64,000 nucleotides of DNA from an uncultured Chloroflexia bacterium (GTDB taxonomy: Bacteria > Chloroflexota > Limnocylindria > Limnocylindrales > CSP1-4), in assembly GCA_963713975.1 (NCBI GenBank), contig OY970218.1:3552001-3616000 (forward strand). The letters are read 5' to 3'. Below the pieces are notes generated by a model. It saw nothing but the letters and a program-made list of their open reading frames with translations. It was not told the DNA's origin and made no database searches. This document shows positions 2,456-24,733 of this stretch, piece after piece. Each line of letters begins with the position of its first letter. Position 1 is the first letter of the stretch. Made by a program: the position numbers and the translations under genes.

Positions 2456-3978
2456 CCGAGCCCGCGTCCCCGGTGCCGGCCGACGAGGACGGTGCCGCAG
2501 CTCCCCAGAAGGCCCCGCTCAGCAACAAGGAGCGGATGACGATCGGCCGGGTCTCGATGCCCGAGCAGGCCGGTGAGGTCCGGGCCCAGAACTTCGAAGA
2601 GGTCAACCTGGGCCTCTCCTACCAACTGGCGATGATGGAGGCGGAGCGCTGCATCCAGTGCCCCAAGCCGTTCTGCGTCGACGGCTGCCCGGTCCGGGTC
2701 GACATCCCGCGCTTCATCAAGTTCCTGCGCGACGGCGACCTGCCGTCGGCCGCGGAGAGCCTCCTCAGCGACAACGCCCTGCCGTGCGTCACCGGCCGCG
2801 TCTGCCCGCAGGAGAGCCAGTGTGAGGGCGTCTGCATCCGGACCAAGAAGGGTGACTCGGTGGCCATCGGCTACCTCGAGCAATTCGTCGCGGACTGGGC
2901 GCTCCAGCACCTCGACGAGCTGCCCAAGGCACAGCCCGTCGCGACCGGCAAGAAGGTCGGCATCGTGGGCTCCGGCCCGGCCGGTCTGACGGCGGCGGGC
3001 GAGCTTGCCCGCAAGGGCCACGACGTGACGGTGTTCGAGGCGTTCCACGCCCCCGGTGGCGTCCTGATCTACGGCATCCCGGAGTTCCGCCTGCCCAAGG
3101 ACATCGTCCAGGCGGAGGTTGACCGGCTGGTGGCTGATGGCGTCAAGATCGAGGTCGACGCGATCGTCGGCCGGACCTACACCGTCCCCGAGCTGCGGGA
3201 GGAGTACGACGCGCTGTTCCTGGCCGTGGGCGCGGGCCTGCCGGTGTTCATGAACGTCCCCGGCGAGAACTACAAGGGCGTGTACTCGGCCAATGAGTAC
3301 CTGACCCGCGTCAACCTGATGGGCGCCTGGAGCCCGGACTCCAAGACCCCGATCCTCCACGGCCAGCGGGTCGTGGTCGTCGGTGGTGGCAACGTGGCCA
3401 TGGATGCGGTCCGGACCGCCAAGCGGCTCGGCGCGACCGAGGCAACGATCGTCTACCGCCGGTCCTTCGACGAGCTGCCTGCCCGGAAGGAGGAGGTCCA
3501 CCACGCCAAGGACGAGGGCGTCCGGTTCGAGCTGCTGACCGCCCCGGAGGAGGTCCTCGCCGACGACGAGCGGTGGGTGACCGGCCTGCGCTGCAGCAAG
3601 ATGGAGCTTGGCGAGCCGGATGCGAGCGGCCGCCGCCGGCCCATCAAGATCAAGGGCTCGGAGCACGTCATCGACTGCGACCTCGTGGTCGTGGCCATCG
3701 GCACCCGGGCCAACCCGCTGCTCACCGGCAGTGCCCCCGAGCTCAAGGTCAACGAGTACGGCTACATGATCACGGACGAGTTCGGCATGACCAGCATGCC
3801 GGGCGTGTTCGCCGGTGGCGACATCGTGCGGGGCGCGGCGACCGTGATCCTGGCCATGGGCGACGGCAAGGACTCCGCGAAGGCCATCGACTCCTACCTC
3901 AACGGCGTCTGGCCACCCGTCGCTCCCGTGGAGGCGACGAAGGAGAACGTCAAGGCGACCGCAGCCGCGAAGGGCTGA
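2452..3978 (+). CDS. nfnB: NfnB/SudA (GltD-like) NADPH-dependent flavin/Fe-S large subunit
   Basis: CIQCxxxxCxxGCP, TGRVCPQESQCEGVC, GSGPAG, YGIPEFRLP, GGGNVAMD, YRR, FAGGD; no gltB nearby. Confidence 0.85.
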   Translation: MTEPASPVPADEDGAAAPQKAPLSNKERMTIGRVSMPEQAGEVRAQNFEEVNLGLSYQLAMMEAERCIQCPKPFCVDGCPVRVDIPRFIKFLRDGDLPSAAESLLSDNALPCVTGRVCPQESQCEGVCIRTKKGDSVAIGYLEQFVADWALQHLDELPKAQPVATGKKVGIVGSGPAGLTAAGELARKGHDVTVFEAFHAPGGVLIYGIPEFRLPKDIVQAEVDRLVADGVKIEVDAIVGRTYTVPELREEYDALFLAVGAGLPVFMNVPGENYKGVYSANEYLTRVNLMGAWSPDSKTPILHGQRVVVVGGGNVAMDAVRTAKRLGATEATIVYRRSFDELPARKEEVHHAKDEGVRFELLTAPEEVLADDERWVTGLRCSKMELGEPDASGRRRPIKIKGSEHVIDCDLVVVAIGTRANPLLTGSAPELKVNEYGYMITDEFGMTSMPGVFAGGDIVRGAATVILAMGDGKDSAKAIDSYLNGVWPPVAPVEATKENVKATAAAKG

Positions 3979-4013
3979 GCGCCCGCGGGGCGGAAACGCT
4001 ATCCGCATCTCCA

Positions 4014-4040
4014 GGCGGGCGACGCCCAGCGTTGCCCGCC
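4014..4040 (+). terminator. Stem-loop after nfnB, possible terminator
   Basis: ggcgggcgacgc-cca-gcgttgcccgcc, a 12-bp stem with one G-U pair; weak U tail; second hairpin at 4043-4086. Confidence 0.45.
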
Positions 4041-4408
4041 GTTCCATGTCCGTGCGCTCCGGGGATGGGCGCGATCGCGACATGGATGGGCGCAGCCGTC
4101 TGAGGAATGCCTTCACGACGACCGCGCCCGTGTCGCTGACTCTGGAACGCCCCGGCAGGACGCTCCATGACCCGGGAGTCCCCCGCGGTGCTGGCGGGCA
4201 CCGGACTGCCGTGCGGTGCGCGGGCGCGACGCCGCGCAGATCCGGGTTGGTGTCGACTGTTCAGGCGTCGATCGGCGGCTCGGACAGGCGCGGGCCCAGG
4301 ACCCGCGCGATCACCGCCGCCACCCGCGCGACGTCCACGGGTTCCGGCTGGTAGGGCCCGAGCCCTCCGTCATCGGGCAAGGTGTGCGTGGCGCGCACGG
4401 AATTCGGT

Positions 4409-4502
4409 CGCGAAGGTCGCCTCCGTGCCTGGGACGCACTGGGACGACGCAGTGGTCGTCGATGTCGGGCGCGCGAAGGTCGTCACCGTGCCTGGGGCGC
4501 AC
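4409..4502. repeat. Two 31-bp imperfect direct repeats (28/31 identical) separated by 32 bp
   Basis: cgcgaaggtcgcctccgtgcctgggacgcac at 4409-4439 and cgcgaaggtcgtcaccgtgcctggggcgcac at 4472-4502. Confidence 0.75.
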
Positions 4503-4593
4503 ACCCGCCGCGGCCCGCGCCCGACTTCGTGCCCGCGGCACACGGCGCGCGGCTCCCGGACTGCCGCACGCACAGGCCCCGGCCCGGCCAACC

Positions 4594-6003
4594 CTAGGGC
4601 CGGACGGCGTCCATCCGGTCCATGATCAGGCGCTTCACGCCCTCCACGGGGACCCGCTCCTGGGTCATGGAATCGCGGTCACGGATCGTGACCGCCCCGT
4701 CCTCCAGCGAGTCCACGTCCACGGTCACGCACCACGGCGTGCCGATCTCGTCCTGGCGCCGGTACAGCTTCCCGATCGCGGCGGTGTCGTCGTAGACGGC
4801 CATCATGTCGCGCTTGAGGTCGCCGAGAAGGCGATGGCACAGCTCCACGATCTCGGGTCGCTTCTTGAGCAGCGGGAGGACGGCCACCTTGTACGGCGCC
4901 AGGTCGGGGTGCAGGCCCAGCACGACCCGCGTATCCTCGCGGACCTGCTCCTCGCGGTAGGCGTCGATCAGGAACGTGAAGGCCGCACGGTCGGCTCCGG
5001 CGGCGGTCTCGACGATCCACGGGATGAAGTGCTCGCCCGAAGCCTGGTCGAAATACTCGAGGTTCTCGCCGGACGACTTGGCGTGGTTGCCAAGGTCGAA
5101 GTCGCCACGGTTGTGGATCCCCTCGAGCTCCTTCCAGCCGAACGGGAAGCGGTATTCCACGTCGATCGCCTTCTTGGCGTAGTGGGCAAGTTCGTCCGGC
5201 GCGTGCTCCCGGAACCGGAGGCGGGACGGCGTCACGCCATACGCCTCGTACCAGGCCTTGCGCCGGGGCAGCCAGAACTCGAAGGCCTCCGCGGCACCCT
5301 CCTCCGGGCGCACGAAGTACTGCATCTCCATCTGCTCGAACTCGCGCATCCGGAACACGAAGTTGCCCGGGCTGATCTCGTTGCGGAAGGACTTGCCGAC
5401 CTGCGCGATGCCGAACGGGATCTTCTTGCGCGAGCTCTGCTGGACGTTCTTGAAGTTGACGTAGCTGCCCTGCGCGGTCTCCGGGCGGAAGTAGACGATG
5501 GATCCCTCGTCCTCGACAGGGCCCATGTGCGAGGTGAACATGAGGTTGAACCGGCGGGGCGGCGACAGGGGGCCGCCGTCGTTGGGGCACACCAGGCCCA
5601 GTCGGGCGACGACGGTCTCGTCACGGAGATCGGTCGCCGACAGGTCCTCGGCACCGGGCAGCTCATCCAGACGGAACCGGCGGCGGCAGGTCGCGCACTC
5701 GACCAGCGGATCGCTGAAGGACCCCACGTGGCCGGAGGTGACCCAGACCTGCGGGTGCATCAGGATCCCGGCATCCAGGCCGACGATGTCGTTGCGGTCC
5801 TGGACCATCGCGCGCCACCAGGCCCGCTTCACGTTGTTCTTGAGCTCCACGCCCAAGGGCCCGTAGTCCCACACGGCGTTGATGCCACCGTAGATCTCGG
5901 ACGACGGGAAGATGAAGCCGCGGCGCTTGGACAGCGAGACGATGGTCTCGAGGCTGGCCACGGCGGGCGCGACGGCGTTGGGATCAACGATGGGGTCGGT
6001 CAC
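4594..6003 (-). CDS. glyQS: Glycine--tRNA ligase, homodimeric GlyQS type
   Basis: [71 protein letters not shown]. Confidence 0.95.
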
Positions 6004-6131
6004 GAGGGGACTCCGAGGGCCCGCGGCCTTGGCAGGGACACGGGCAGGCGATGGCTGGACGGGACGCGGCCGACTCTAGCAGACGGGCGCCCGGCCCCAT
6101 GGAGCGGGCCTCGCCGCGAACCCCCGGAACC

Positions 6132-6926
6132 TCAGGCTCCCGATTCGAAGCGGTAGCCCAGGCCGTACTCAGTGGCGATGAACGTCCGGTCCGGCGATGC
6201 GGCGGCAAGCTTCGCGCGCAGGTTGCGCATGGTCACCCGGAGCAGCTGGGTCTCCTCGCCGTAGGCGGGGCCCCAGACGCCGCGCAGGAGCTCCGCGTGG
6301 CTGCGGAGCGTCCCCGGATGACGGGCAAGCGTGACCAGGAGCCGGAACTCCGTGGGCGTCAGGTGGACCTCGGCCGCCTCCCCCATCACCCGGTGCGTGA
6401 CGAGCTCGATGCGCAGGCCAGGAACCTCGATGGGCTCCTGGTCGTGCGGGACTTCCACGAACTGCACCCGGCGCAACGCCGCCGCGATCCGCGCCACGAG
6501 CTCGGACATGCGGACAGGCTTCGTCAGGTAGTCGTCCGCACCGGCTACCAGGCCGCGGACGACGTCGGCTTCGGAGCCCATCGCCGTGACCATCAGGACG
6601 GGCACCGTGCTGACCCCGCGGATCCACTCGATCACCGCCCAACCGTCCATGCCGGGAAGGTTGAGATCAAGGAGCACGAGCTCCGGCTCCTCTGCTCCGA
6701 ACAGGCGCGTCGCCTCCAGCCCGTCGGCTGCGACCGCGGTACGCCATCCATGGCGGCTGACCCACAGCTCCACGAGGTCCCGGAACTCGGGCTCGTCCTC
6801 CACGATCAGCACCAGCTCGCCGTGCCCGGGCTGTGGGCGGGACGGCGACGGGGGCGGGACGTTCCGCAGGCCATTGGGCGGCCGTGAGCCGTCGACGGGC
6901 AGGGGGCCGCTTCCTTCCCGGCTCAT
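6132..6926 (-). CDS. OmpR/KdpE-family DNA-binding response regulator
   Basis: Receiver VEDE..LLDLNLPGMDG..VTA..DDYLTKP; winged helix LTPTEFRLL..LRAKL..TEYGLGYRF; ATGA overlap with the kinase gene. Confidence 0.9.
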   Translation of the reverse strand: MSREGSGPLPVDGSRPPNGLRNVPPPSPSRPQPGHGELVLIVEDEPEFRDLVELWVSRHGWRTAVAADGLEATRLFGAEEPELVLLDLNLPGMDGWAVIEWIRGVSTVPVLMVTAMGSEADVVRGLVAGADDYLTKPVRMSELVARIAAALRRVQFVEVPHDQEPIEVPGLRIELVTHRVMGEAAEVHLTPTEFRLLVTLARHPGTLRSHAELLRGVWGPAYGEETQLLRVTMRNLRAKLAAASPDRTFIATEYGLGYRFESGA

Positions 6927-8533
6927 GCCGGCGTCGCATCCGGCTGGTCCCCGCCCGGCGTCGTGGCGCGGCCCGCGATCGGCATGCTGAACGAGATGGC
7001 GCTGCGATCCGATCCCGGCTCCACCCAGATCCGGCCGCCGTGCGCCTCCACGAGGCGGCGGCACACGTGGAGCCCGATGCCGCGGGCCCCCGGCCAGGTC
7101 TCGCGCGCATTCCGCCCCCGGTACAAGCGATCGAACACGAGCACCCGCTCATCGGGCGGGATGCCGGGACCGTCGTCCTCCACCGTGACCACCACCACCC
7201 CCTGGTGCTGCCGCGCGCCGATCGCGATCGACCCCGGCCCACCGTACTTGCGAGCGTTGTCGACGAGGTTCACCAGGACGTGTCCGACCTGGACGGCATC
7301 CACGTCCACCGGCGGCAGATCGGCCGGCAGCCTCACGAGGATCGGCGGCATGCCGGGCCACTCGCCGAGTCCTCCGATCACGGTCTCCAGCATCGTCGCC
7401 ACGTCGGTGCGAGTCCTGTGGAGTGCGAGGCTGGCGTGCTCGAGCTGCGTCAGGTCCAACAGCTCATCAACGAGCTGTTGCAGGCGACCGGCGGCGGCCC
7501 CGATCCGCTCGACGGAGCGCCGCTGGGCCACCGGATCGAGGCCGAGGTCGAGCAGGCTGTCCACGTACCCGGAGATCAGGGCCAGCGGCGTCCGCAGCTC
7601 GTGGGAGACCGCGGCCAGGAAGCTCCCCCGGAGTTCCTCGGCTGCGTGATCCGGACGAAGGTCACGGAGCACCACCACGGCGCCGTGCTCGGGGCCCGGC
7701 ATGGCGGAGAACGAGGCCGCCACCGGGATCTCGGCCCCGGCCCAGGCCGGCAGCCGCAGCTCGGTATCCACGATCCTGTCCGGTCCGGCCATCACCTCCT
7801 CGAAGCGGCATCGCGGCCCACAGCGCAGCCCGTCCCCCTGCGCACACCCCAGGACGGTCTCGCAGGTCGCCGGGTCTGCCGGCAGCCGCCCCCCGAGCAG
7901 CGACACGGCCGCCCGGTTCATGCGGACCACGAACCGCTGCTCGTCCACGGCCACGATCCCCTCGGTGGCCCCGTCGAGGATCGCGGAGAGGAGCGCCTGC
8001 TCGCCGGCGAGCGCAGCGCGCAGCTGCGCCGCCCGGAACGCGATCGCCAGCTCGTGCCGCGCGAGCCCGAGCAACCTGATTCGATCCGGTGCCAGCTCCA
8101 CGCCCGCCGCTGGGCGCAGGGCGACGAACCCGACCACGCGCGCGCCGAGCCTCCCCTCACCCAGGGCCCGACGCTCTTCGAGCGAGACGCCCTGCCATCC
8201 ATGGTCGTGGGCCCAGGTGATTGCCGCCACGGCCGATGGGAAGCTGGCCGGAAGTGCCGGCGAGGGTGCCGCCACACGGTCCGGGTCGGCGGCGACGAGG
8301 CGAAGGTCGTCCTCGTCCGGCGTCGCGAGCCACATGGCGCCGTCCACGGCATCGGTGGCCCGGACGAGCTCCCCGATGACCGATCCCGCCATGAGGGCCA
8401 CGTCATCGCCCAGGGCGAGGAGCTGGCTCAGCTGGTACTGCGCGAAGACGGTGTCCGCCTGGCGCTGCGCCTCCTCGAGGCTCGTGCGGAGCTCCGCCTC
8501 GGTCAGGGCGGCCATCCCGGTTCGCTGTGTCAT
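6923..8533 (-). CDS. Soluble sensor histidine kinase (GAF-like + PAS + HisKA + HATPase)
   Basis: H box VSHELRTPL, N box NLVDNARKY, G1 EDDGPGIP, G2 GIGL..EAHGGRIW; PAS start ILDGATEGIVAVDEQ..MNRAA; no hydrophobic TM stretch seen. Confidence 0.88.
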   Translation of the reverse strand: MTQRTGMAALTEAELRTSLEEAQRQADTVFAQYQLSQLLALGDDVALMAGSVIGELVRATDAVDGAMWLATPDEDDLRLVAADPDRVAAPSPALPASFPSAVAAITWAHDHGWQGVSLEERRALGEGRLGARVVGFVALRPAAGVELAPDRIRLLGLARHELAIAFRAAQLRAALAGEQALLSAILDGATEGIVAVDEQRFVVRMNRAAVSLLGGRLPADPATCETVLGCAQGDGLRCGPRCRFEEVMAGPDRIVDTELRLPAWAGAEIPVAASFSAMPGPEHGAVVVLRDLRPDHAAEELRGSFLAAVSHELRTPLALISGYVDSLLDLGLDPVAQRRSVERIGAAAGRLQQLVDELLDLTQLEHASLALHRTRTDVATMLETVIGGLGEWPGMPPILVRLPADLPPVDVDAVQVGHVLVNLVDNARKYGGPGSIAIGARQHQGVVVVTVEDDGPGIPPDERVLVFDRLYRGRNARETWPGARGIGLHVCRRLVEAHGGRIWVEPGSDRSAISFSMPIAGRATTPGGDQPDATPA

Positions 8534-9273
8534 TGCCCGTGCCTGCCGGACGCAAGGAGGGCTCGGAACAGGAGGTAGCAGGACGTGGCCCCGGGGTCCT
8601 GGTGACCGCGGGATCGCTCGCCCAGGCGCAGCGCCAGTCCGCGCCGCGCCACCATCGGCGTCGTGGCGTGCATGCCGTCCCGTGCCGCGCGGATGGCGGA
8701 CCGGATCGCCGCCTCCCGACCCGCGCCCGCCGCGATCGCCGCCGCGAAGGCATCGGCGGCTGGTCGCAGCGAGTCGTAGATGGTCTTGTCCCCCATCCGG
8801 CACCTGCCTCGTCGCGCCAGTCCCTCCGCGGCGGCATCCAGCGCCCGGGCGGTGTCCTCCGGCGCGAGCGCCCGCAGGCCCGCGACCGCGATGCCGGCCT
8901 CGATGAAGGCCGTCCCGTACAGGGAACCCCCCGCCCCGCCGACACCAGAGACCAGCTGGTGCCCCAGCCGGCGCAGGACGTCCCCCACATCGTCTGAAGT
9001 GCCCGCCGGCTCGAGGGCCCGGACCGCGTCGCCAAAACCCGCGGCCATGTTCTCGCCGTGGTCGCCGTCACCGAGCTCTGCGTCCAGGCGGTCGAGGAGG
9101 ATCCGGTTCCGGGCGAGCAGGCGGAACGCCCGGACGACGACCGCTGTCAGGTCGGTCCCGTCGAACGACCCCGACGGATGGCCGTCGCTGCGCCCGATGC
9201 CGCCACCTGGCCGGCTCCCGGTGTCGCCCGCGGGGTGGAGCGTGGAGGGCTCATCGCCGCTGCGGGTGCTCAT
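8530..9273 (-). CDS. DhaL-like (DAK2) ADP-binding protein, divergent paralog
   Basis: [39 protein letters not shown]; start uncertain; stop overlaps the kinase ATG. Confidence 0.85.
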   Translation of the reverse strand: MSTRSGDEPSTLHPAGDTGSRPGGGIGRSDGHPSGSFDGTDLTAVVVRAFRLLARNRILLDRLDAELGDGDHGENMAAGFGDAVRALEPAGTSDDVGDVLRRLGHQLVSGVGGAGGSLYGTAFIEAGIAVAGLRALAPEDTARALDAAAEGLARRGRCRMGDKTIYDSLRPAADAFAAAIAAGAGREAAIRSAIRAARDGMHATTPMVARRGLALRLGERSRGHQDPGATSCYLLFRALLASGRHGQ

Positions 9274-9384
9274 GCTCCAGCGTAGTGTATGGCCCAGCGC
9301 CGGTCCCGCGGACGGCTCGCCGCGATCGCCTGGGCGAGATGCGGCGGCTCGATGCGCAACGGCGCCGAACGGAGGATCGTCGGC

Positions 9385-9792
9385 TTGGTCGGTCTGGTGC
9401 TGGTGGCGCACAGCCAGGACGTGGTGCGTGGCCTGATGGCCATGGTGGCCCAGGCCGCCCCGGCCGTGCCCGTCGCCGGGGCCGGCGGCCTGGGTGGGGA
9501 CCGGCTGGGTACAAATGGCCTCGAGGTCGCCGATGCGCTCCGCGATGCCCTCGCGCGGACGGCGGACGACGGTGTGCTGGTGCTGCTGGACCTGGGCAGC
9601 GCCTCGCTCGCCCTGGACGTGGCGCTCGACGAGCTCGACCCAGGGGTGCGAGGCCTCGTCCGCGTCACGGAGGCGCCCTTCGTCGAGGGCGCGGTGATGG
9701 CCGCGGTGGCGGCTGCGGGCGGCGCCAACCTGGACGCCGTGGCCATGGCCGCCGATGGCGCGTGCTCATTACCCAAGCGGCCCCGCGACTGA
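9385..9792 (+). CDS. dhaM: DhaM-like PTS EIIA(Man)-fold phosphotransfer protein
   Basis: TTG start with GGAGG at 9371-9375 gives (M)VGLVLVAHS; also DLGSA and APFVEGA. Confidence 0.8.
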   Translation: MVGLVLVAHSQDVVRGLMAMVAQAAPAVPVAGAGGLGGDRLGTNGLEVADALRDALARTADDGVLVLLDLGSASLALDVALDELDPGVRGLVRVTEAPFVEGAVMAAVAAAGGANLDAVAMAADGACSLPKRPRD

Positions 9793-9793
9793 G

Positions 9794-10525
9794 GTGGCAG
9801 CCACGTCCGCGGCGCCCGACCCGTTCCGGGGCCAAGTGGGCGTCATCGAGGCGTGGCTGCGCTGCGCCGCCGAACGCGTCCACGAGCACCGGATCTGGCT
9901 GACCGACCTCGACGCGGCGATCGGTGACGGCGACCACGGCATCAACATGGATCGGGGCTTCACCGCCCTGGTGGCCGACCTGGACGCAGGGGCCCTCCCG
10001 ACCGACGGCATCGGCCGCCTCCTGGCCGCGGCCGGCCGGCGCCTGCTGGGCAACGTGGGTGGCGCCAGCGGCGCGTTGTACGGCCGAGGCCTCATGGCAG
10101 CCGGCGACCGCATCGGAGGGGGGTCGATCGACGCCGATGCCGGCGGTCGGACCCTCCTGGAGCTCGCCCTCGCGGCGGCCGTCGACGGCGTTGCAGCGCT
10201 GGGGCGATCGGGCCCGGGGGACAAGACGATGCTCGATGCCCTCGTCCCGGCGCTGGCTGCGATCCGAGCGACCGCCCCGGCCATGCCGGTCGCGCAGGTG
10301 GTGGCCCTGGCCGCAGGGGCCGCCGAGGCGGGTGCCGCGGGCACGATCCCGATGGTCGCGCGGAGAGGGCGGGCCAGCTACCTGGGAGAGCGGGCCGCCG
10401 GGCACCTCGATCCCGGGGCGGCATCGAGCGCCATCCTGGTGCGCGCCCTCGCGGACGTCCTCGCCGCAGTCGAGTCCGGGGCCGAGCATGAGCCACGCCG
10501 CAGAGAAGGTCCCACGCGACCCTGA
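9794..10525 (+). CDS. dhaL: DhaL (DAK2) paralog
   Basis: [51 protein letters not shown]; GTG 1 nt after the dhaM stop. Confidence 0.85.
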   Translation: MAATSAAPDPFRGQVGVIEAWLRCAAERVHEHRIWLTDLDAAIGDGDHGINMDRGFTALVADLDAGALPTDGIGRLLAAAGRRLLGNVGGASGALYGRGLMAAGDRIGGGSIDADAGGRTLLELALAAAVDGVAALGRSGPGDKTMLDALVPALAAIRATAPAMPVAQVVALAAGAAEAGAAGTIPMVARRGRASYLGERAAGHLDPGAASSAILVRALADVLAAVESGAEHEPRRREGPTRP

Positions 10526-10541
10526 AACGCCGGTCGGACCG

Positions 10542-10621
10542 GGATGCGACCGGGTGGCGGCAAGGATGCAGAACGGATTCACGTTGTCTTGAGATTCCGC
10601 GACCCGGCACGCCCCTAGAGT
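10542..10621 (+). promoter_or_regulatory. Candidate glpF-operon promoter with 11-bp-spaced direct repeats
   Basis: GGATGC (10542), GGTGGC (10553), GGATGC (10564), GGATTC (10575); -10-like TAGAGT at 10616-10621; poor -35. Confidence 0.45.
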
Positions 10622-10836
10622 CCACTTAACCGCGCTTGCAGCGGCGGGTCTTGGCACGACCGGGTCGCCCGGCCCGCCCGTCGATGGTTGCGAAAGGAGG
10701 AGCCACCGGAGGAGGGATAGCCCGACACGGCCCACCTGCCCGCGCCGCGCCAACAGTTCGCCGCAGGGCCGCAGACCGGGCCACCGTCGATCGAGCCCCG
10801 GGGACCGGGGCCAATCCACTAGAGGGAGTTCGAGGC

Positions 10837-11580
10837 ATGGTTTGGGATACCAACATTTTCCTCGCCGAAGTGTTCGGGACGGGACTCCTCGTCCTGCTCG
10901 GTGACGGCGTGGTCGCAGGCGTCCTGCTCGCGAAGTCCAAGTCCAACAACGCTGGCTGGATCGTCATCACAGCGGCATGGGCGTTCGCCGTGTTCGTCGG
11001 CGTCGTCGTCGCCGGCCCGATCAGCGGCGCGCACCTGAACCCGGCGGTCACGATCGGCCTCGCCGTCCAGGGCGCCACCCCGTGGGACCAGGTCCCCGTG
11101 TACCTGCTGGGCGAGTTCGTCGGGGCCTTCATCGGCGCGACGCTCGTCACGATCCACTATTGGGATCACTACAAGCAGACCGAGGACCAGGGCCTCAAGC
11201 TCGCCACGTACTGCACCGCTCCGAACATCCGCAACTACCCGCTCAACTTCGTCTCAGAGGTCATCGGCACCTTCGTGCTGGTGTTCGTGATCTTCACGTT
11301 CGGCACCAACGGCAGCTCGGCCGGCCTCGCATCGCTGGGGGCCCTGCCCGTCGCGATCCTCGTGTTCTCGATCGGCATGTCGCTCGGCGGCACGACCGGG
11401 TACGCGATCAACCCGGCCCGTGACCTCGGGCCCCGCATCATCCACGCGATCCTGCCGGTCCCGGGCAAGGGTGGCTCGGACTGGGAGTACTCCTGGGTTC
11501 CGGTCGTCGGCCCGGTTGTCGGTGGAATCCTGGCGGCGTTGGTCTACAACGGCGTCTGGGTCAACGTGATGGGGATGTAG
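10837..11580 (+). CDS. glpF: Glycerol uptake facilitator (MIP/aquaglyceroporin)
   Basis: SGAHLNPAVT and GYAINPARDLGPR (NPARD marks the glyceroporin type); multiple TM helices. Confidence 0.93.
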   Translation: MVWDTNIFLAEVFGTGLLVLLGDGVVAGVLLAKSKSNNAGWIVITAAWAFAVFVGVVVAGPISGAHLNPAVTIGLAVQGATPWDQVPVYLLGEFVGAFIGATLVTIHYWDHYKQTEDQGLKLATYCTAPNIRNYPLNFVSEVIGTFVLVFVIFTFGTNGSSAGLASLGALPVAILVFSIGMSLGGTTGYAINPARDLGPRIIHAILPVPGKGGSDWEYSWVPVVGPVVGGILAALVYNGVWVNVMGM

Positions 11581-11667
11581 CGACACCATCCTGACGAACG
11601 GCGCGCTCGTCGCCGGGGCGCCCTCCGGTCCCCGGCGGCGATCCCTCCACCAGTACGGGGAGAGCTC

Positions 11668-12666
11668 ATGAAGAAGCTCATCAACGCACCCGAGAACGTC
11701 GTCGACGAGGCCCTCGCGGGGATGCTCGCCGCCCACCCGGGCTACATCCGGGTCGAGGAGCCGAACATCGTCGTCCGCAAGGACGCCCCGCGCGCCGGCA
11801 AGGTCGGCGTGATCTCGGGTGGTGGCTCGGGCCACGAGCCGATGCACGGCGGCTTCGTCGGCATGGGCATGCTCGACGCGGCCTGCCCGGGTGCCGTGTT
11901 CACGTCGCCCGTCCCGGACCAGATGCTCGCGGCCACCAAGGCCGTGGACGGTGGCGCGGGCGTGCTCCACATCGTCAAGAACTACACCGGCGACATCATG
12001 AACTTCGAGATGGCGGCCGAGATGGCACGCGCCGAAGGGCTCGAGGTCACGGCGGTCGTCATCGCGGACGACGTCGCGGTCAAGGATTCGCTGTACACGG
12101 CCGGCCGGCGCGGCGTCGGCGGCACGGTGCTCGCGGAGAAGATCGTCGGCGCGGCCGCCGAGGCGGGTGCCGACCTGGCCACCGTCACGGCGCTCTGCCA
12201 GAAGGTCCAGGACAACGTCCGCTCCATGGGCATGGCCCTCACGAGCTGCACGGTGCCCATGGCCGGCAAGCCGACATTCGAGATCGCGGACGACGAGATG
12301 GAGATCGGCGTCGGCATCCATGGTGAGCCGGGCCGGTCCCGCGAGAAGCTCGCCACGGCCGACGAGATCACCGAGATGCTCGCCACGCCGATCCTCGACG
12401 ACCTGCCCTTCGAGAGCGGGGACAACGTCCTCGCGTTCGTGAACGGCCTCGGCGGCACCCCGCTCGTCGAGCTCTATGTCGTCTACAACAAGCTTGCCCA
12501 GATGTGCGCCGCACGAGGCGTGACGATCACCCGCAACCTCATCGGCAGCTACATCACGTCGCTCGACATGGCCGGCTGCTCCATCACCCTGCTCAAGCTC
12601 GACGACGAGCTGACGAAGTACTGGGACGCCCCGGTCAACACGCCTGCGCTCCGGTGGGGCGTCTGA
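11668..12666 (+). CDS. dhaK: Dihydroxyacetone kinase substrate-binding subunit
   Basis: [42 protein letters not shown]. Confidence 0.95.
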
Positions 12667-12700
12667 CCCGGCGACCCGATCTGCGAGCGGGAGAACCACG

Positions 12701-13348
12701 ATGAGCACCGCGCCACACATCAGCTACGACGACGTCGTGGCATGGGTCAGTCTGCTGGCCGAGCGGTTCCACGCCGAGAAGGAGTACCTCACGGCGCTGG
12801 ACTCCGCGATCGGGGATGCCGACCACGGCATCAACATGGATCGCGGCCTCGGGGCCGTGATGGTCAAGCTGCCGGCGCTGCCAACCGGCGATGTCGGCGC
12901 CTTCCTCAAGGGCGTGGGGATGACGCTCGTCTCCACCGTCGGCGGCGCGAGCGGTCCGCTCTACGGCACCTTCTTCCTCCAGCTCGGTGGCGCGACCGCC
13001 GGCAGGACGGAGATCGAGCTCGGTGACTTCGCCACGGGGCTGGAGGCCGGCGTCGCCGGGATCCAGCGCCTGGGCAAGGCCGAGCCGGGCGACAAGACCA
13101 TGCTCGACGCACTCCTGCCGGCACGCGACGCGCTGCGCGCGGGCGTTGACCGGGGCGACAGCCCGGCCGACGCTCTTGGCGCGGCCGTCGCGGCGGCCGA
13201 GCAGGGCATGGTCGCCACCATCCCGCTCGTCGCCCGCAAGGGTCGGGCGAGCTACCTCGGGGAGCGCAGCGCGGGTCACCAGGACCCGGGTGCGACGTCC
13301 TCCCATCTCCTCCTCAAGGCTGCCGCCGATTCCTGGTTCCAAGCCTAG
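12701..13348 (+). CDS. dhaL: Dihydroxyacetone kinase ADP-binding subunit
   Basis: [54 protein letters not shown]; directly follows dhaK. Confidence 0.93.
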
Positions 13349-13379
13349 GCATCCTTCACACACAGGAGCTCGCATCTTC

Positions 13380-14876
13380 ATGACCAAGTATGTCGGGGCC
13401 CTCGACCAGGGCACCACGAGCACCCGCTTCATGATCTTCGACCACGCGGGCGGCGTGGTCGCCATCGACCAGAAGGAGCACGAGCAGATCTTCCCCAAGC
13501 CCGGCTGGGTAGAGCACGACGCGATCGAGATCTGGACCCGCTGCCGGGAAGTCATCAAGGGCGCCATGGCCAAGGCCGGCATCACCGCCGCCGACCTCGC
13601 CGCCGTGGGCATCACCAACCAGCGCGAGACCGCGCTGGTCTGGGACAGGAAGACCGGCATGCCGGTCTTCAACGCGATCGTCTGGCAGGACACTCGAACC
13701 GACGTCCTCGTGAACGAGTTCGCCAAGGAGGGCGGGCAGGACCGCTTCCGCGCGAAGGTCGGCCTGCCGCTGGCCACGTACTTCTCGGGGCCCAAGGTCC
13801 GCTGGATCCTGGACAACGTCCCCGGCGCGCGCGCAAAGGCGGAGGCCGGCGACCTGGTGTTCGGCAACATGGACACCTGGTGCATCTGGAACCTCACGGG
13901 CGGCGTCAACGGCGGCGTCCATGTGACGGACGTCACCAACGCCAGCCGCACCATGCTCATGGACCTCGAGACCCTGTCCTGGGACGATGAGATCCTCGGC
14001 ATCATGGGCATCCCGAAGTCCATGCTCCCGGAGATCAAGGCATCGTCCGAGGTCTACGGCACCTGTGTCGGCGACCTCGCCGGCGTGCCGGTTGCGGGCG
14101 ACCTCGGCGACCAGCAGGCGGCCCTGTTCGGCCAGACGTGCTTCTCGCCCGGCGAGGCGAAGAACACCTACGGCACCGGCTGCTTCATGCTCATGAACAC
14201 GGGCGAGAAGGCTGTCCCGTCCAAGAGCGGCCTGCTCACCACGATGAGCTACAAGATCGGCGACCAGCCGGCGGTGTACGCCCTCGAGGGGTCCATCGCG
14301 ATCACCGGCGCGCTCGTGCAGTGGCTGCGCGACAACCTCGGCATGATCGCCAAGTCCGAGGACGTGGAGGCGCTCGCGGCCACGGTCGATGACAACGGCG
14401 GCGTCTACTTCGTCCCCGCGTTCTCCGGCCTGTTCGCCCCGTACTGGAAGAGCGACGCTCGCGGTGTCATCGCGGGCCTCACCCGTTACGTGAACAAGGG
14501 TCACATCGCGCGTGCCGTCCTCGAGGCGACGGCGTGGCAGACCCGCGAAGTGCTCGACGCCATGAACACCGACTCCGGTGTTCCGCTGACGGCCCTCAAG
14601 GTCGACGGTGGCATGGTGTTCAACAACATGCTCATGCAGTTCCAGGCCGATGTCCTGGGCGTCCCGGTCATCCGGCCGGTCGTCGCCGAGACCACGGCCC
14701 TGGGCGCGGCCTATGCCGCCGGCCTCGCGGTCGGCTACTGGGCCGAGATCGAGGACCTGCGCGAGAACTGGGCGCGTGACGCCGAGTGGACCCCGGAGAT
14801 GGCTGCCGAGATCCGCGAGAAGGACTACGCCCAGTGGAAGAAGGCCGTCACGCGGACCTTCAACTGGGTCGACTAG
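13380..14876 (+). CDS. glpK: Glycerol kinase
   Basis: [52 protein letters not shown]. Confidence 0.97.
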
Positions 14877-14900
14877 CCTCCGTTCGCGTCTGAACGGACC

Positions 14901-14933
14901 CGGCCCCGACGCCCATCACGGGCGTCGGGGCCG
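14901..14933 (+). terminator. Perfect 14-bp stem-loop after glpK (terminator or mRNA-stability hairpin)
   Basis: cggccccgacgccc-atcac-gggcgtcggggccg; no long U tract. Confidence 0.55.
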
Positions 14934-14953
14934 TCACCTGACAGGGAGGGATC

Positions 14954-15358
14954 ATGCAACCAGGCGTCGCCTGCGTCGGGCTCGTCGTGGTCTCACACTC
15001 GAGCCGGATCGCCGAGGGAACGGCCGAGCTGGCCGGACAGATGGCCGGACCCGACGTCCGCATCCGGCCGGCCGGAGGGATGGAGGACGGCTCCATCGGC
15101 ACGGATGCCGCCCGCATCGCCATGGCCATCGGCGAGGCCGATGCCGGCGCGGGGGTCGTGGTCGTGGCGGACCTCGGCAGCGCCGTGCTCGCCACCCGCA
15201 CGGCACTGGAGCTGCTGGGTGACCCGGGGAACGTGCGCCTCAGCCGCGGCCCGATCGTCGAGGGCGCGGTCATGGCCGCCGTCCAGTCGAGCACGGGTTC
15301 TGACCTGGAGCAGGTCCTCGAGGCGGCCGAGGGTGCCGCGTCCCTGCCCAAGGGTTAG
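14954..15358 (+). CDS. dhaM: DhaM PTS EIIA-like phosphotransfer subunit
   Basis: VGLVVVSHS..IAEG, AGGMEDGSIGT, DLGSA, PIVEGA; GGAGG upstream. Confidence 0.88.
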   Translation: MQPGVACVGLVVVSHSSRIAEGTAELAGQMAGPDVRIRPAGGMEDGSIGTDAARIAMAIGEADAGAGVVVVADLGSAVLATRTALELLGDPGNVRLSRGPIVEGAVMAAVQSSTGSDLEQVLEAAEGAASLPKG

Positions 15359-15446
15359 AGTGGGGGCCGGGCGTCCGCCCGTGGCGGGCCCGCGAACGAG
15401 TCAGCTTGGGCGCGTCGGCCTGCGCCCACACAGCGAGGTGAACCAC

Positions 15447-17129
15447 ATGACGGTGCCGCACGCCGTCGACGTCCTCGTCATCGGAGGAGGCGCGACGGGT
15501 GCCGGGGTCCTCCGCGACCTGGCGCGGAGGGGCCTGCGGGCCCTGCTCGTGGAGCGCAGCGACTTCGGGACCGGGACGACGGGCCGCTACCACGGCCTGC
15601 TGCACTCCGGCGGCCGTTACGTGGGCAAGGACAAGGTCGCCGCCCGTGAGTGCATCGTCGAGAACCGCGTTCTGCGCCGGATCGCCCCCGCGAGCATCGA
15701 GGATACGGGCGGCTACTTCGTGGCCACGCCCGACGATCCCGACGACTACGTGGAGGCATTCGCGGAGAACTGCCGCCTCTCCGGTGTCGACTGCGAGGAG
15801 GTCAAGGTCGCGGACCTGCTTGCCCGCGAGCCGGCGCTCAACCCGAGGATCCGGCGGGCATTCCGCGTGCCGGACGGCTCCGTGGAACCGTGGCAGCTGA
15901 TCGAGGCGACCGTCACCGACGCCCGCCGCCACGGCAGCGAGGCCCTCGCCTACCAGCGCGTGATCGGGATGGATCTCAGCGGCGGCCGGATCGCGGCCGT
16001 GACCTTGCGCGACGAGCGGACGGGCACTGTGTCGCAGGTCTGGACCCACTTCGTGATCTCGGCGGCCGGCGCCTGGGCGGGACAGATCGCCGCCCTGGCG
16101 AGGGTCAACGTCGAGATGACCCCCGGCAAGGGCACGATGCTCATCTTCAATCACCGGATGACCGATGCCGTGGTCAATCGCTGCCATCGCTCAGCGGACG
16201 GCGACATCATGGTCCCCGTCCACACGGTGGCCATCCTGGGCACCACCGACATCAAGGTTCCCGATCCCGACGACTACGAGATCACCCGGGAGGAGGTTCG
16301 GCGTCTCGTCGGCGAGGGCTCCAAGATGTTCCCGGATCTCCCGCGGATGCGCATCCTTCGCGCGTATGCGGGCGTGCGTCCCCTCTACCAACCGCCGGCG
16401 GCAACGGTGGCCGAAGCGGGCAATCGGGCGATCACCCGGGCCCACTCCATCCTCGACCATGCCGACCAGGGCGTGGAGAACTTCGTCTCGATCGTTGGGG
16501 GCAAGCTGACCACGCACCGCCTGATGGCCGAGGAGACCGTGGACGCGGTCGCGGCCAGGATGGGCGTCTCGGCGCCGTGCACGACGGCGGACGAGGTCCT
16601 GCCGGACCAGGACGGCGGTCACACCTACTGGCTGGGCCACCGCCTCGCAGACCACGAGCAGGAGGGCGGCGGTGACGCCAACCTCGTATGCGAGTGCGAG
16701 ATCGTCACCCGGAAGATGGTAGAAGGCTACCTGGACACGCACTGGCCCTGCTCCATCGACGACGTCCGGCGTGGCACCCGCGTCGGCATGGGACCGTGCC
16801 AGGGGGCGTTCTGCACCTTCCGGGTCGCGGGCCTCATGGCGGAGCGACTCGATGCGCACACGGCGGCCACAGGGCAGCCGGCGCCGGGTGCCCACGTCGT
16901 CGACGGGCACCACCCTGGGAGCAGCGCGCTGCACGCGGCCATCGCGGACCGGGCGCTGACGGCATTCCTCCGGGAACGGTTCAAGGGCACCCGGCCCATC
17001 GCCGACGGCCGGCAGCTCCAGGAGCTGATGATGACCAACGGGATCTATCTCGGCGTCCTGGGCCTGGAATCGATGGTGTCCGCGCCGGTCCCGGCGCTCG
17101 ACGAGGAGAGCCTCGATGCCGCACGCTGA
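15447..17129 (+). CDS. glpA: Anaerobic glycerol-3-phosphate dehydrogenase subunit A
   Basis: GGGATG, GTTGRYHGLLHSGGRY, GGKLTTHRLMAE, C-terminal BFD-like CECE..TRVGMGPCQGAFC. Confidence 0.92.
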   Translation: MTVPHAVDVLVIGGGATGAGVLRDLARRGLRALLVERSDFGTGTTGRYHGLLHSGGRYVGKDKVAARECIVENRVLRRIAPASIEDTGGYFVATPDDPDDYVEAFAENCRLSGVDCEEVKVADLLAREPALNPRIRRAFRVPDGSVEPWQLIEATVTDARRHGSEALAYQRVIGMDLSGGRIAAVTLRDERTGTVSQVWTHFVISAAGAWAGQIAALARVNVEMTPGKGTMLIFNHRMTDAVVNRCHRSADGDIMVPVHTVAILGTTDIKVPDPDDYEITREEVRRLVGEGSKMFPDLPRMRILRAYAGVRPLYQPPAATVAEAGNRAITRAHSILDHADQGVENFVSIVGGKLTTHRLMAEETVDAVAARMGVSAPCTTADEVLPDQDGGHTYWLGHRLADHEQEGGGDANLVCECEIVTRKMVEGYLDTHWPCSIDDVRRGTRVGMGPCQGAFCTFRVAGLMAERLDAHTAATGQPAPGAHVVDGHHPGSSALHAAIADRALTAFLRERFKGTRPIADGRQLQELMMTNGIYLGVLGLESMVSAPVPALDEESLDAAR

Positions 17130-18450
17130 CGTCGTCGTCATCGGTGCCGGGCTCGCCGGGATGGTCGCCGCGACACGGCTCGCCGAGGCGGGCGCAGTGG
17201 TGACGCTGGTCGCCAAGGGCCACGCGAGCACCCACTGGGGCTCGGGCGGGCTGGACGTCGCGGCGCCGACCGGTGCAGCCACCACGGCCGACGGGGTCGC
17301 GCGCCTCGCGAGGCTCGAGCACCCGTACGCGTTCCTGGCTCCGGACGTCGCGCCGTCCGTCGGCTGGCTCCTCGATCGGCTGGAGGCAGGGGGGCTCCCC
17401 TACTCAGGAACGCTCGACACGCCCATCCGGCGCGTGCCCACGGCCATCGGCGGCACGCGGCGCGTCGCGATCGTGCCCGAGGCCCAGGCCGCGGCGCAGC
17501 GGGCATGGCAGGGGGACGAGGTCCTGGTGGTCGCCGGCCCAACCGGGTTCAAGGACTTCTGGCCGGCCGCGATCGCGGGCAGCCTGGGTCGTGAGGCCGT
17601 GTGGCACGGCGCGGACCGGCCGGACCGGCTGGTGGGCGTGGCCGTGGACCTGCCCGGTCTCTCGGAGCGGAACAACCTGAACGCGCTCCTGCTGGCGGGC
17701 CGATTCGATGACCCGTCCCGGTGGTCGGACGACATCGGCCGGATCGCCAAGGCAGTCGAGCGGGCCGCCGGGGGTCGGCCGGGGCGCGTCGCCCTGCCCG
17801 CGATCTTCGGCCTGAGCCGGCACACGGAGATCTGGGCCGAGCTCCGGGCGCGGCTGTCCCTCGAGCCGTTCGAGGTTCCGCTGGTGCCCCCCAGCATCCC
17901 GGGCATCCGCCTGTGGCGGCTGCTCCGCGAGCACCTCCGAGCGGCCGGCGGTCGCATCCAGGTGGGTGAGGCCGTGGCGAGGATCCACGTCGAGGCAGGT
18001 CGAGTGACCGCGGTGGAGATGGAGGCCGCCACCCGGACCCACCTGATCCGCACCGAGGCCATCGTCCTGGCAACGGGCGGCATCGCCGGGGGCGGGCTCG
18101 TTGCCCACGGCGACGGCCGCCTGGCCGAACCCCTGCTCGACCTGCGCGTCGACGCCCCCGAGCACGACCTGTGGCTGGTCAAGGACGCCCTGGACCCGGC
18201 GGGCCACCCGATCGAGGCGGCGGGCGTGCCGACGGATCCCGGCCTCCGGCCGCTCGGCCCCGCACACCAGGTCTCGCACGCCAACGTGCTCGTCGCCGGT
18301 GCGCTCCTCGCCCGACAGCGCGCCCTGCGGGAGCGCTGCGGGGACGGCGTGGCCGTCGCATCGGGCTGGCGCGCCGCCAACCAGTTGGCCGCCGGCGCCA
18401 CCCGCCATCCTGTCGGCCGCGAGCCGGTGACCCCGAGGTTCGAGCAGTGA
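17116..18450 (+). CDS. glpB: Anaerobic glycerol-3-phosphate dehydrogenase subunit B
   Basis: GAGLAG, PPSIPGIRL, VLATGGIAGGGL, CGDGVAVASG; lies between glpA and glpC. Confidence 0.88.
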   Translation: MPHADVVVIGAGLAGMVAATRLAEAGAVVTLVAKGHASTHWGSGGLDVAAPTGAATTADGVARLARLEHPYAFLAPDVAPSVGWLLDRLEAGGLPYSGTLDTPIRRVPTAIGGTRRVAIVPEAQAAAQRAWQGDEVLVVAGPTGFKDFWPAAIAGSLGREAVWHGADRPDRLVGVAVDLPGLSERNNLNALLLAGRFDDPSRWSDDIGRIAKAVERAAGGRPGRVALPAIFGLSRHTEIWAELRARLSLEPFEVPLVPPSIPGIRLWRLLREHLRAAGGRIQVGEAVARIHVEAGRVTAVEMEAATRTHLIRTEAIVLATGGIAGGGLVAHGDGRLAEPLLDLRVDAPEHDLWLVKDALDPAGHPIEAAGVPTDPGLRPLGPAHQVSHANVLVAGALLARQRALRERCGDGVAVASGWRAANQLAAGATRHPVGREPVTPRFEQ

Positions 18451-24448: not shown

Positions 24449-24733
24449 TCAGTCGGGGATCGCCTCGCCCATCCCGCCGTCGACGAACCCCTCGAGGGTC
24501 TCGATGGCGGTGTCCTCGTCCTCGCCCTCCGCCACCAGCCGGATCCGGTGGCCCTTCGCCACCCCGCTGCCCATCACCATCAGGATCGACTTGGCATCCA
24601 CCGGTGCCGAACCCCGCTCGAGGTTCTCGAGGGTGATCCTGGAGGTGAACGACGCCGCGGTCCTGACGAACATGGCGGCCGGACGCGCATGCAGGCCGCT
24701 GGGGTTGAGAACGGTCCGTTCGGTGCTCCGCAT
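24449..24733 (-). CDS. ptsH: PTS phosphocarrier protein HPr
   Basis: GLHARPAA (His15) and DAKSIL (Ser46) motifs, AEGEDE. Confidence 0.92.
   Translation of the reverse strand: MRSTERTVLNPSGLHARPAAMFVRTAASFTSRITLENLERGSAPVDAKSILMVMGSGVAKGHRIRLVAEGEDEDTAIETLEGFVDGGMGEAIPD

Follow-up and report, generated by a model that had tools for sequence, protein, structure and literature searches.

The described systems closest to the one reported here control dihydroxyacetone (DHA) kinase genes through subunits of the enzyme itself. Extracts of two papers (PMC6429413, PMC6643234) describe ADP as a tightly bound cofactor of DhaL, which is converted to ATP by DhaM charged by the phosphotransferase system (PTS); the phosphate is then taken by DHA bound to DhaK. 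In Escherichia coli control of the activator DhaR depends on whether DhaL carries ATP or ADP, with DhaL activating and DhaK repressing it (PMC10084136, in extract), and in Lactococcus lactis DhaS has the DhaK paralog DhaQ as its coactivator (PMC7590123, in extract). We have analyzed a 64,000 nucleotide (nt) stretch of DNA (the window; contig OY970218.1 of assembly GCA_963713975.1, positions 3,552,001 to 3,616,000) from an uncultured Chloroflexia bacterium. Here a diverged DhaL paralog that we call DhaL′ is encoded together with a soluble histidine kinase and an OmpR-type response regulator, close to genes of glycerol and DHA metabolism. A previous reading of this DNA made from its letters alone (the sequence-only reading) had cited DhaR and DhaQ/DhaS as precedents, and its account of both agrees with the extracts of the two papers (PMC10084136, PMC7590123).

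The module has likenesses to the DhaR system. A DhaL protein is the proposed signal carrier and the sensing part is GAF followed by PAS, as in DhaR (PMC10084136, in extract), and in both cases the regulatory genes diverge from the dha operon. It differs in having a HisKA/HATPase kinase and a separate OmpR-type regulator where E. coli has an activator of the AAA+ enhancer-binding type. The carrier would be a dedicated and diverged paralog, whereas in E. coli it is the catalytic DhaL itself. Moreover, no role of DhaK is indicated here, and in the searches described below the sensor showed no specific relation to DhaR(N) in either sequence or fold. With DhaS-DhaQ the module would share the setting aside of a DHA kinase subunit paralog for regulation (PMC7590123, in extract); the NCBIfam family TIGR02362 names DhaQ a coactivator. 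Yet that paralog comes from DhaK, binds DHA and has a TetR-family activator as its partner; the one described here derives from the nucleotide subunit DhaL and is paired with a two-component system. The module belongs to neither the DhaR-DhaL/DhaK nor the DhaS-DhaQ systems.

Soluble accessory proteins are known to steer histidine kinases, as PII does with NtrB, and EIIA-Ntr with KdpD or PhoR. In systems of the NtrB/PII type a small cytoplasmic protein, the state of which reflects metabolism or PTS phosphorylation, binds the kinase and sets its kinase/phosphatase balance. The principle of steering a kinase by a small soluble protein is therefore not new, but the partner is. Unlike those proteins, the accessory here would be an enzyme-subunit paralog with a tightly bound nucleotide, encoded in the same operon as the kinase and translationally coupled to it. 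The GlpP antiterminator controls the same kind of glpF-led operon, but acts by RNA antitermination rather than by a phosphorelay. Literature searches for such a system or for work on these organisms, read as titles and abstract openings, yielded no account of a histidine kinase linked to DhaL. If the interpretation given below is correct, the module would be a third control of DHA kinase genes via the enzyme's own subunits, after DhaR-DhaL/DhaK and DhaS-DhaQ. It would be the first case of a DHA kinase subunit paralog feeding a two-component phosphorelay, joining PTS-type phosphotransfer to His-Asp signaling. With four small proteins, all of them soluble and cytoplasmic, it would be a compact system for studying the control of kinase output by a protein co-sensor. 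For annotation, genes named plain DhaL would include a regulatory clade that can be recognized by GLALRL together with GDKTI.

Architecture and distribution of the module

The three genes lie on the minus strand in DNA of 69–74% G+C. dhaL′ (8530–9273) encodes a DhaL/Dak2 paralog of 247 amino acids, the proposed protein co-sensor, and is followed by the gene of the soluble sensor kinase (6923–8533, 536 amino acids) and that of an OmpR/PhoB-type response regulator (6132–6926, 264 amino acids). The ATG of the kinase (8533–8531) overlaps the stop codon of dhaL′, and the ATG of the regulator (6926–6924) that of the kinase. Both junctions read ATGA, and therefore the stop of each gene overlaps the next start. 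Beginning the regulator at 6926 would give it an N-terminal extension of 36 residues. The sequence-only reading had described these two overlaps, and they are borne out by the open reading frame boundaries and by inspection of both junctions. It had also stated that the module is transcribed away from the glycerol and DHA genes. This is correct; dhaM-dhaL2 and glpF-dhaK-dhaL-glpK-glpD are all on the plus strand, so the minus-strand module points away from them. A DhaL paralog does precede the kinase, as it had said, but the locus holds three DhaL paralogs and not two.

The hallmarks of a classical two-component system are complete, from the H-box and ATPase domain to a receiver with its acceptor Asp and a winged-helix output. 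HisKA (E = 5.4e-17) and HATPase_c (E = 2.6e-23) in the kinase, and Response_reg (E = 9e-28) and Trans_reg_C (E = 1.4e-19) in the regulator, all pass the Pfam cut-offs, and the translations contain the motifs SHELRTPL, LLDLNLPGMDG and TKP. The recognition helix of the regulator is LLRVTMRNLRAKL. Weak PAS and GAF matches in the kinase fall under the cut-offs, and there is no membrane-like stretch, the maximum Kyte-Doolittle mean over 19 residues being 1.43. No TetR regulator and no DhaK paralog came up in the module in searches with Pfam and NCBIfam.

Divergent from dhaL′ is a dhaM gene, dhaM′ (9385–9792, plus strand), encoding the phosphoryl donor subunit as an EIIA-man domain only (135 amino acids; PF03610, E = 1.4e-16). 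It scores 98.5 bits with TIGR02364 of NCBIfam, for which the cut-off is 98.25. The TTG start at 9385 is probable, and was deduced from orthologues. In a quick tree search the dhaM copies that are divergent from dhaL′ form a clade of their own (36 rows) on one side of a branch with a support of 100, and are distinct from the dhaM found after glpK. One family has both kinds of dhaM in its loci; the window has only the module-linked kind.

The sensor part of the kinase (residues 1–295) matched 124 proteins at E ≤ 0.001 in a collection of 5.8 billion proteins, and the source names of the homologous kinases point to Chloroflexota of the 'Candidatus Limnocylindrales' type. A full-length orthologue of the kinase is present in 11 of 24 other sampled genomes of the genus. 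All 11 loci have DhaL′ upstream and the regulator downstream of the kinase, and nine have the divergent dhaM; the remaining two end too early. Across the class, sensor matches occur in 46 of 301 genomes, spread over 13 of the 57 genera and over three families; this tally includes the unpublished genome G277, and the loci that were fetched include no unpublished genome. The link between DhaL′ and the kinase extends over these three families, which belong to a single class that is probably the Limnocylindria type of Chloroflexota.

We compared 40 loci around sensor matches, taken from 39 genomes. The order DhaL′, sensor kinase, regulator on a single strand is found in 37 of them, with a divergent dhaM in 35 of the 37 and dhaK plus its own DhaL in 36. 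A genome outside the 40 loci (G042) has the same order. With starts that were chosen heuristically, the dhaL′-kinase junction is a 4-nt overlap in 16 of the 37 and an overlap of any length in 25. Such recurrence of the arrangement, at all 11 orthologous loci in the genus and at 37 of the 40 across the class, is not due to chance.

Of the 301 genomes, 74 (among them the unpublished G277, G156, G122 and G320) have a dhaK match that passes the curated cut-off; 44 of the 74 are sensor-positive and 30 sensor-negative. In 20 loci, from 20 of the 30 sensor-negative genomes, none of DhaL′, the kinase or the regulator is found near glpF-dhaK-dhaL-glpK(-dhaM), and each has a single DhaL, after dhaK. The co-occurrence beside dha and glp genes that the sequence-only reading had proposed to examine is thus strict, with the module in 37 of 40 sensor loci and in 0 of 20 sensor-negative dha loci; kinase-regulator pairs usually lacking DhaL, which it had named as the counter-case, are not what is observed. 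Five sensor-negative genomes were searched whole with a DhaL′ profile. Because every Dak2 match in them adjoins a dhaK-type gene, no DhaL′ has been seen apart from the kinase. Among the five Dak2 genes beside a bona fide dhaK, four have the GRASY motif discussed below and one has no match to the regular expression, and the two beside DhaK-like paralogs have no match to it.

In one species of the window's own genus (L100) the gene of glycyl-tRNA synthetase directly adjoins glpF, and the block regulator-kinase-dhaL′-dhaM-dhaL2 is missing as a unit. Three module-less loci of the window's family (L099, L101 and L102) have a GlpP antiterminator gene upstream of glpF, and GlpP gave no match in the window's genome; this looks like the replacement of one regulator by another within one family. 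A DUF4118-PAS kinase upstream of dhaK in another locus (L103) is unrelated and was set aside.

DhaL′ and the kinase sensor

DhaL′ is a clear member of the DhaL family. It matches Dak2 of Pfam with E = 3.1e-46 and scores 172.9 bits with TIGR02365 of NCBIfam against a cut-off of 138.3, with about 36 low-complexity residues ahead of the Dak2 domain. Compared with E. coli DhaL (3pnl_B/4lrz) it gives E = 4.6e-33 and 118 bits, where the catalytic-type DhaL encoded after dhaK gives 196 bits. DhaL′ adjoins the kinase and not dhaK, and a different DhaL follows dhaK in 36 of the 37 loci. We made a tree of 98 Dak2 sequences from the loci by a quick search, with two other Dak2 genes of the genome as the root and two sparse rows dropped. 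The 37 copies that precede the kinase, plus a frameshifted copy from L092, form one clade with a Shimodaira-Hasegawa-like approximate likelihood ratio (SH-aLRT) support of 99 and a stem of 0.58. The DhaL copies that follow dhaM form another, with a support of 97. Judged by this tree and by the substitutions described next, DhaL′ is a specialized paralog clade. The L092 copy (6140–6716) is split by its frameshift, through either a sequencing error or a pseudogene.

Alignment columns were compared between 37 copies before the kinase, 35 after dhaK, 12 after dhaM and 11 convergent copies. DxxxGDxDHG with D64, D69 and D71, GGASG, GDKT and GERSxGHxDPGA are all retained in DhaL′. The three aspartates, which we take to be ligands of Mg, are conserved in at least 97% of the 37 DhaL′ copies and align with positions 30, 35 and 37 of E. 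coli DhaL. Because these motifs are intact, DhaL′ would still be expected to bind Mg-nucleotide. Elsewhere the clade has changed, with GRASYL becoming GLALRL and GDKTM becoming GDKTI. R213L is found in 95% of the DhaL′ copies, Y216R, K211R and M165I are each found in 100%, and I67L is also fixed. The R and Y of GRASY are present in 100% of the other 58 DhaL copies compared, and GRASY is also found in three homologues of solved structure, the DhaL of E. coli, that of L. lactis and the L domain of the ATP-dependent kinase of C. freundii. Since the last enzyme has no DhaM, this suggests that the residues lost from DhaL′ serve phosphotransfer or the K-domain side and not DhaM docking. Two cysteines specific to the clade, C158 and C232, are fixed as well. 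They lie beside the GDKT and DPGA loops, at sites where the remaining DhaL copies carry Ala/Ser and Thr/Ser.

The DhaL′ profile matched 7877 proteins in a library of 1.84 billion representatives, the sources of which annotate these proteins as plain DhaL. Among the best 150 of the 7877, 78 have GRASY, seven the DhaL′ form and eight another form, and 57 are unmatched by the regular expression. In one species of the genus the 5′ part of the dhaL′ region (L014, ∼3880–4090) has about four tandem copies of a unit of ∼33 nt (GGCGCTCACGGTGAGCCGCGCCGGATCC...), which is absent from the other species.

The kinase was modeled with AlphaFold from 89 homologues, with a predicted local distance difference test score (pLDDT) of 87.5 that makes the model a confident one. 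From its N-terminus the model has a helix (residues 12–40), a GAF fold, a linker helix of 40 residues and a PAS fold, with fold-comparison Z scores of 12–12.8 for GAF and about 11 for PAS. The N-terminal helix (residues 12–42; 8408–8500, minus strand) is a candidate docking or signaling helix. It is the most conserved part of the sensor, with a mean frequency of the top residue of 0.81 compared with 0.56 for the GAF sheet, and F30, Y33, L35, S36, Q37, L38 and A40 are invariant in the 89 sequences. Inside the PAS domain there is a cluster of cysteines, C224, C230, C238 and C242 (7808–7864, minus strand). C224, C230 and C242 are invariant in the 89 homologues and C238 is present in at least 90%. 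The cluster is a possible metal or Fe-S site, and as such a possible second sensory input.

The exceptions to the co-occurrence all come from one genus. They are three of the 40 loci (L088, L095 and L096) plus a fourth locus, L126. In L088, L095 and L126 a paralogous kinase-regulator pair stands beside glpF-glpK-glpD, without dhaK, dhaL, dhaM or DhaL′; L096 meets the edge of its contig within glpF, so that glpF alone is visible. Between glpF and glpK, L126 retains a relic of 22 residues of the 3′ end of dhaL (5517–5582, E = 2.9e-6), and L088 a weak one of 11 residues (5488–5520, E = 0.11). The relics show that dhaK-dhaL has been deleted from an ancestral operon of the dha type. In the alignment the kinases of L088, L095 and L096 have kept the GAF core, the PAS domain and the cysteine cluster, with three or four of the PAS cysteines retained in kinases without DhaL′, and the N-terminal helix motif has gone. 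In L126, which lies outside the alignment, the sensor match begins only at residue 94. One genome (G056) has both forms of the kinase. These loci amount to effectively one event in evolution, but it does link the presence of the DHA kinase genes, of DhaL′ and of the N-terminal helix.

Regulator sites, proposed mechanism and alternatives

An element resembling a promoter or operator lies upstream of glpF (10575–10621, plus strand), and is a proposed site of the regulator. It comprises GGATTCACGTTGTCTTGAGATTCC (10575–10598), 17 nt and TAGAGT (10616–10621). All 14 window-type loci have the element, and so do all three loci that have the kinase-regulator pair without DhaL′. Upstream of glpF it was found in none of the 20 sensor-less loci, where the regular expression gave two unrelated matches about 6–7 kb away. 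As it occurs with or without DhaL′, the element goes with the kinase-regulator pair. The glpF-led operon is likely the target of the regulator in this genome, as judged from the distribution of the element. In the leader that follows (10622–10837, plus strand), between TAGAGT and glpF, there is a conserved GAAAGGAGG box near 10684–10692; GAAAGGAGG words are the Shine-Dalgarno sequence of dhaM in other genera.

Other genera have repeats in the dhaL′-dhaM spacer. One group has three TCTTG repeats with a spacing of 11 bp, and another family has two TCCTCA repeats with the same spacing. When 61 loci (911,918 bases, both strands) were searched by regular expression, these patterns occurred only in the dhaL′-dhaM spacer, towards dhaM, and neither was found in the 20 sensor-less loci. 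Loci of the window type have neither repeat; TCTTG-N6-TCTTG does not occur in the dha locus of the window, with three matches elsewhere where 4.55 would be expected. The recognition helices of the regulators fall into three classes that match the three classes of element. This is consistent with binding but is not independent evidence, because the match also follows phylogeny. In the window, the divergent intergenic region between dhaL′ and dhaM (9274–9384) has TAGTGTA at 9283–9289, which is kept across the genus (L008–L016), with the variants TAGACT and TACACT in other genera. On the strand of dhaL′ this is TACACTA, which lies 9 nt ahead of the ATG and resembles a −10 word.

We consider it probable, with a probability of about 0.6, that DhaL′ is a protein co-sensor that passes the state of the DHA kinase or of the PTS to a His-Asp relay. 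In this mechanism dhaL′-kinase-regulator together with the divergent dhaM′ would be a dedicated regulatory module of the glycerol/DHA operon. The ADP or ATP load of DhaL′ would be set by the PTS chain from EI through HPr to DhaM, and would also be tied to the turnover of DHA at DhaK-DhaL, either directly or by competition for DhaM∼P. The nucleotide load would decide whether DhaL′ docks on the N-terminal helix and GAF region of the kinase, and docking would shift its kinase/phosphatase balance. The phosphorylated regulator might then bind the repeat elements that overlap the −35 region of the glpF promoter or, in other genera, a corresponding site at the dhaM promoter. The outcome would be activation of glpF-dhaK-dhaL-glpK, if the sign of regulation that we infer is right. 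A more specific form of the mechanism is put forward only tentatively. The ligand of the kinase may be a protein-bound nucleotide, carried by a retired DhaL that is charged from the PTS via its own DhaM, drained along with the phosphorylation of DHA, and able to dock on the N-terminal helix and GAF region only in one nucleotide state. The relay would then gauge enzyme flux and not a metabolite, while the cysteine-rich PAS domain would add a redox or metal input.

Routing of DhaL-based sensing into a His-Asp phosphorelay had been suggested in the sequence-only reading, and it draws partial support from the co-occurrence, the DhaL′ clade and the promoter elements. The likeness to the GAF-PAS region of DhaR, which was cited there, is less specific. 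The sensor sequence has nothing below E = 0.2 among solved structures, and no match to DhaR. Fold searches return generic matches of the LOV-PAS, DosP, phytochrome and GAF kinds; DhaR(N) (4lrz_H) is at rank 25 in Foldseek (E = 1.6e-5, template modeling (TM) score 0.24) and outside the 50 best by Z. The likeness of the kinase GAF-PAS region to DhaR(N) thus appears to be only generic.

This generic likeness weighs against the role proposed for DhaL′, and so do several other observations. No true fusion of Dak2 to a kinase is present among the best 150 of the 7877 profile matches. Since paralogous kinases exist without DhaL′, the kinase may sense something by itself, for example through its PAS cysteine cluster. 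The N-terminal helix could be kept for dimer signaling and not for docking. The evidence is comparative throughout, and all cases belong to one class, mostly of uncultured bacteria, in which much of the synteny may be inherited, and independent events are few; there is one loss together with dhaK-dhaL, plus the presence or absence of the block within the window's genus. Prediction of the complex between residues 1–295 of the kinase and 37–247 of DhaL′, both given as alignments, scored 0.26 in two runs, with a mark of 0.32 and without controls, and speaks neither for binding nor against it. The only protein with both Dak2 and HisKA among those best 150 (P0141) is a frameshifted read-through and was rejected; other long forms join Dak2 to EIIA-man (with or without HPr and EI), P450 or MIP.

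DhaL′ could alternatively be an extra enzyme subunit, or an isoform that serves another DhaK-like protein, and be co-transcribed with the regulators by coincidence, leaving the kinase to sense a ligand of its own, or redox, through its GAF or cysteine-rich PAS domain without contact with DhaL′. We regard this as unlikely, though it has the best claim among the alternatives. DhaL′ passes the DhaL equivalog cut-off with all its nucleotide and Mg motifs kept, and the genome has two further DhaK-like genes; but each DhaK-like gene examined already adjoins a DhaL of its own, and GRASY, kept by all the catalytic forms, has been lost from DhaL′. Kinase-regulator pairs without DhaL′ exist with the same glpF element, and the cysteine cluster is kept whether DhaL′ is there or not, which would fit a self-sufficient sensor. 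Against this, the N-terminal helix of the kinase is found only where DhaL′ occurs, the translational coupling of dhaL′ to the kinase is widespread, and in the loci and genomes examined DhaL′ is never apart from the kinase and vanishes along with dhaK-dhaL.

A still less probable alternative is that DhaL′ reads PTS phosphorylation alone, as the level of DhaM∼P, and is not discharged by DhaK. The module would then receive a carbon-status or catabolite input and not sense DHA. The dedicated dhaM′ clade travels with the module and the genome encodes HPr and EI, which would suit such a role. So would the loss of R and Y from GRASY if, as its presence in ATP-dependent kinases without DhaM suggests, the motif belongs to the K-domain or phosphotransfer side and not to DhaM docking; yet the role given to these residues comes from sequence comparison. 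DhaL′ has gone exactly where dhaK-dhaL has been deleted, despite the retention of glpF-glpK-glpD with the same kinase-regulator pair. Its loss with dhaK-dhaL therefore ties DhaL′ to the DHA kinase and not to general carbon status. Finally, adjacency as mere inherited synteny without functional meaning is very improbable. All examples do come from one class, in which the order of the genes around the module has largely been kept. From family to family, however, the surroundings of an unbroken dhaL′-kinase-regulator have been reshuffled, with dhaM, the additional DhaL copies, glpK and the type of glpF differing in place or kind. The block also comes and goes as one piece (L100), and the long stem of the DhaL′ clade carries fixed substitutions.

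Neighboring genes

The second DhaL paralog, DhaL2 (9794–10525, plus strand), has a GTG start at 9794, 1 nt past the stop of dhaM′. It matches Dak2 with E = 5.2e-43, scores 189.8 bits with TIGR02365 and retains GRASY. Another family has, instead of a DhaL2 after dhaM′, an extra DhaL convergent to the regulator. After a gap of 312 nt comes the proposed target operon of the module, glpF-dhaK-dhaL-glpK-glpD, all on the plus strand. It consists of glpF (10838–11580, ATG at 10838; MIP, E = 1.5e-47), dhaK (11668–12666; TIGR02363, 505.9 bits), the catalytic-type dhaL (DhaL3, 12701–13348; E = 5.6e-57 with E. coli DhaL), glpK (about 13380–14876; FGGY domain) and glpD (15105–17129; DAO domain). Searching Rfam over window positions 4000–18000 gave no match at E ≤ 0.1, and a scan of positions 6000–11000 for the sigma-70 consensus and terminators found none.

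The genome as a whole has six Dak2 matches, three of them inside this locus, and the two further DhaK-like genes lie elsewhere. It has one HPr gene (about 24449–24730, minus strand, inside the window) and one EI gene elsewhere, so that PTS input to the module is possible. The HPr gene, the only one of the genome, lies some 15 kb away from the dha locus and downstream of a gene for an M19 dipeptidase.

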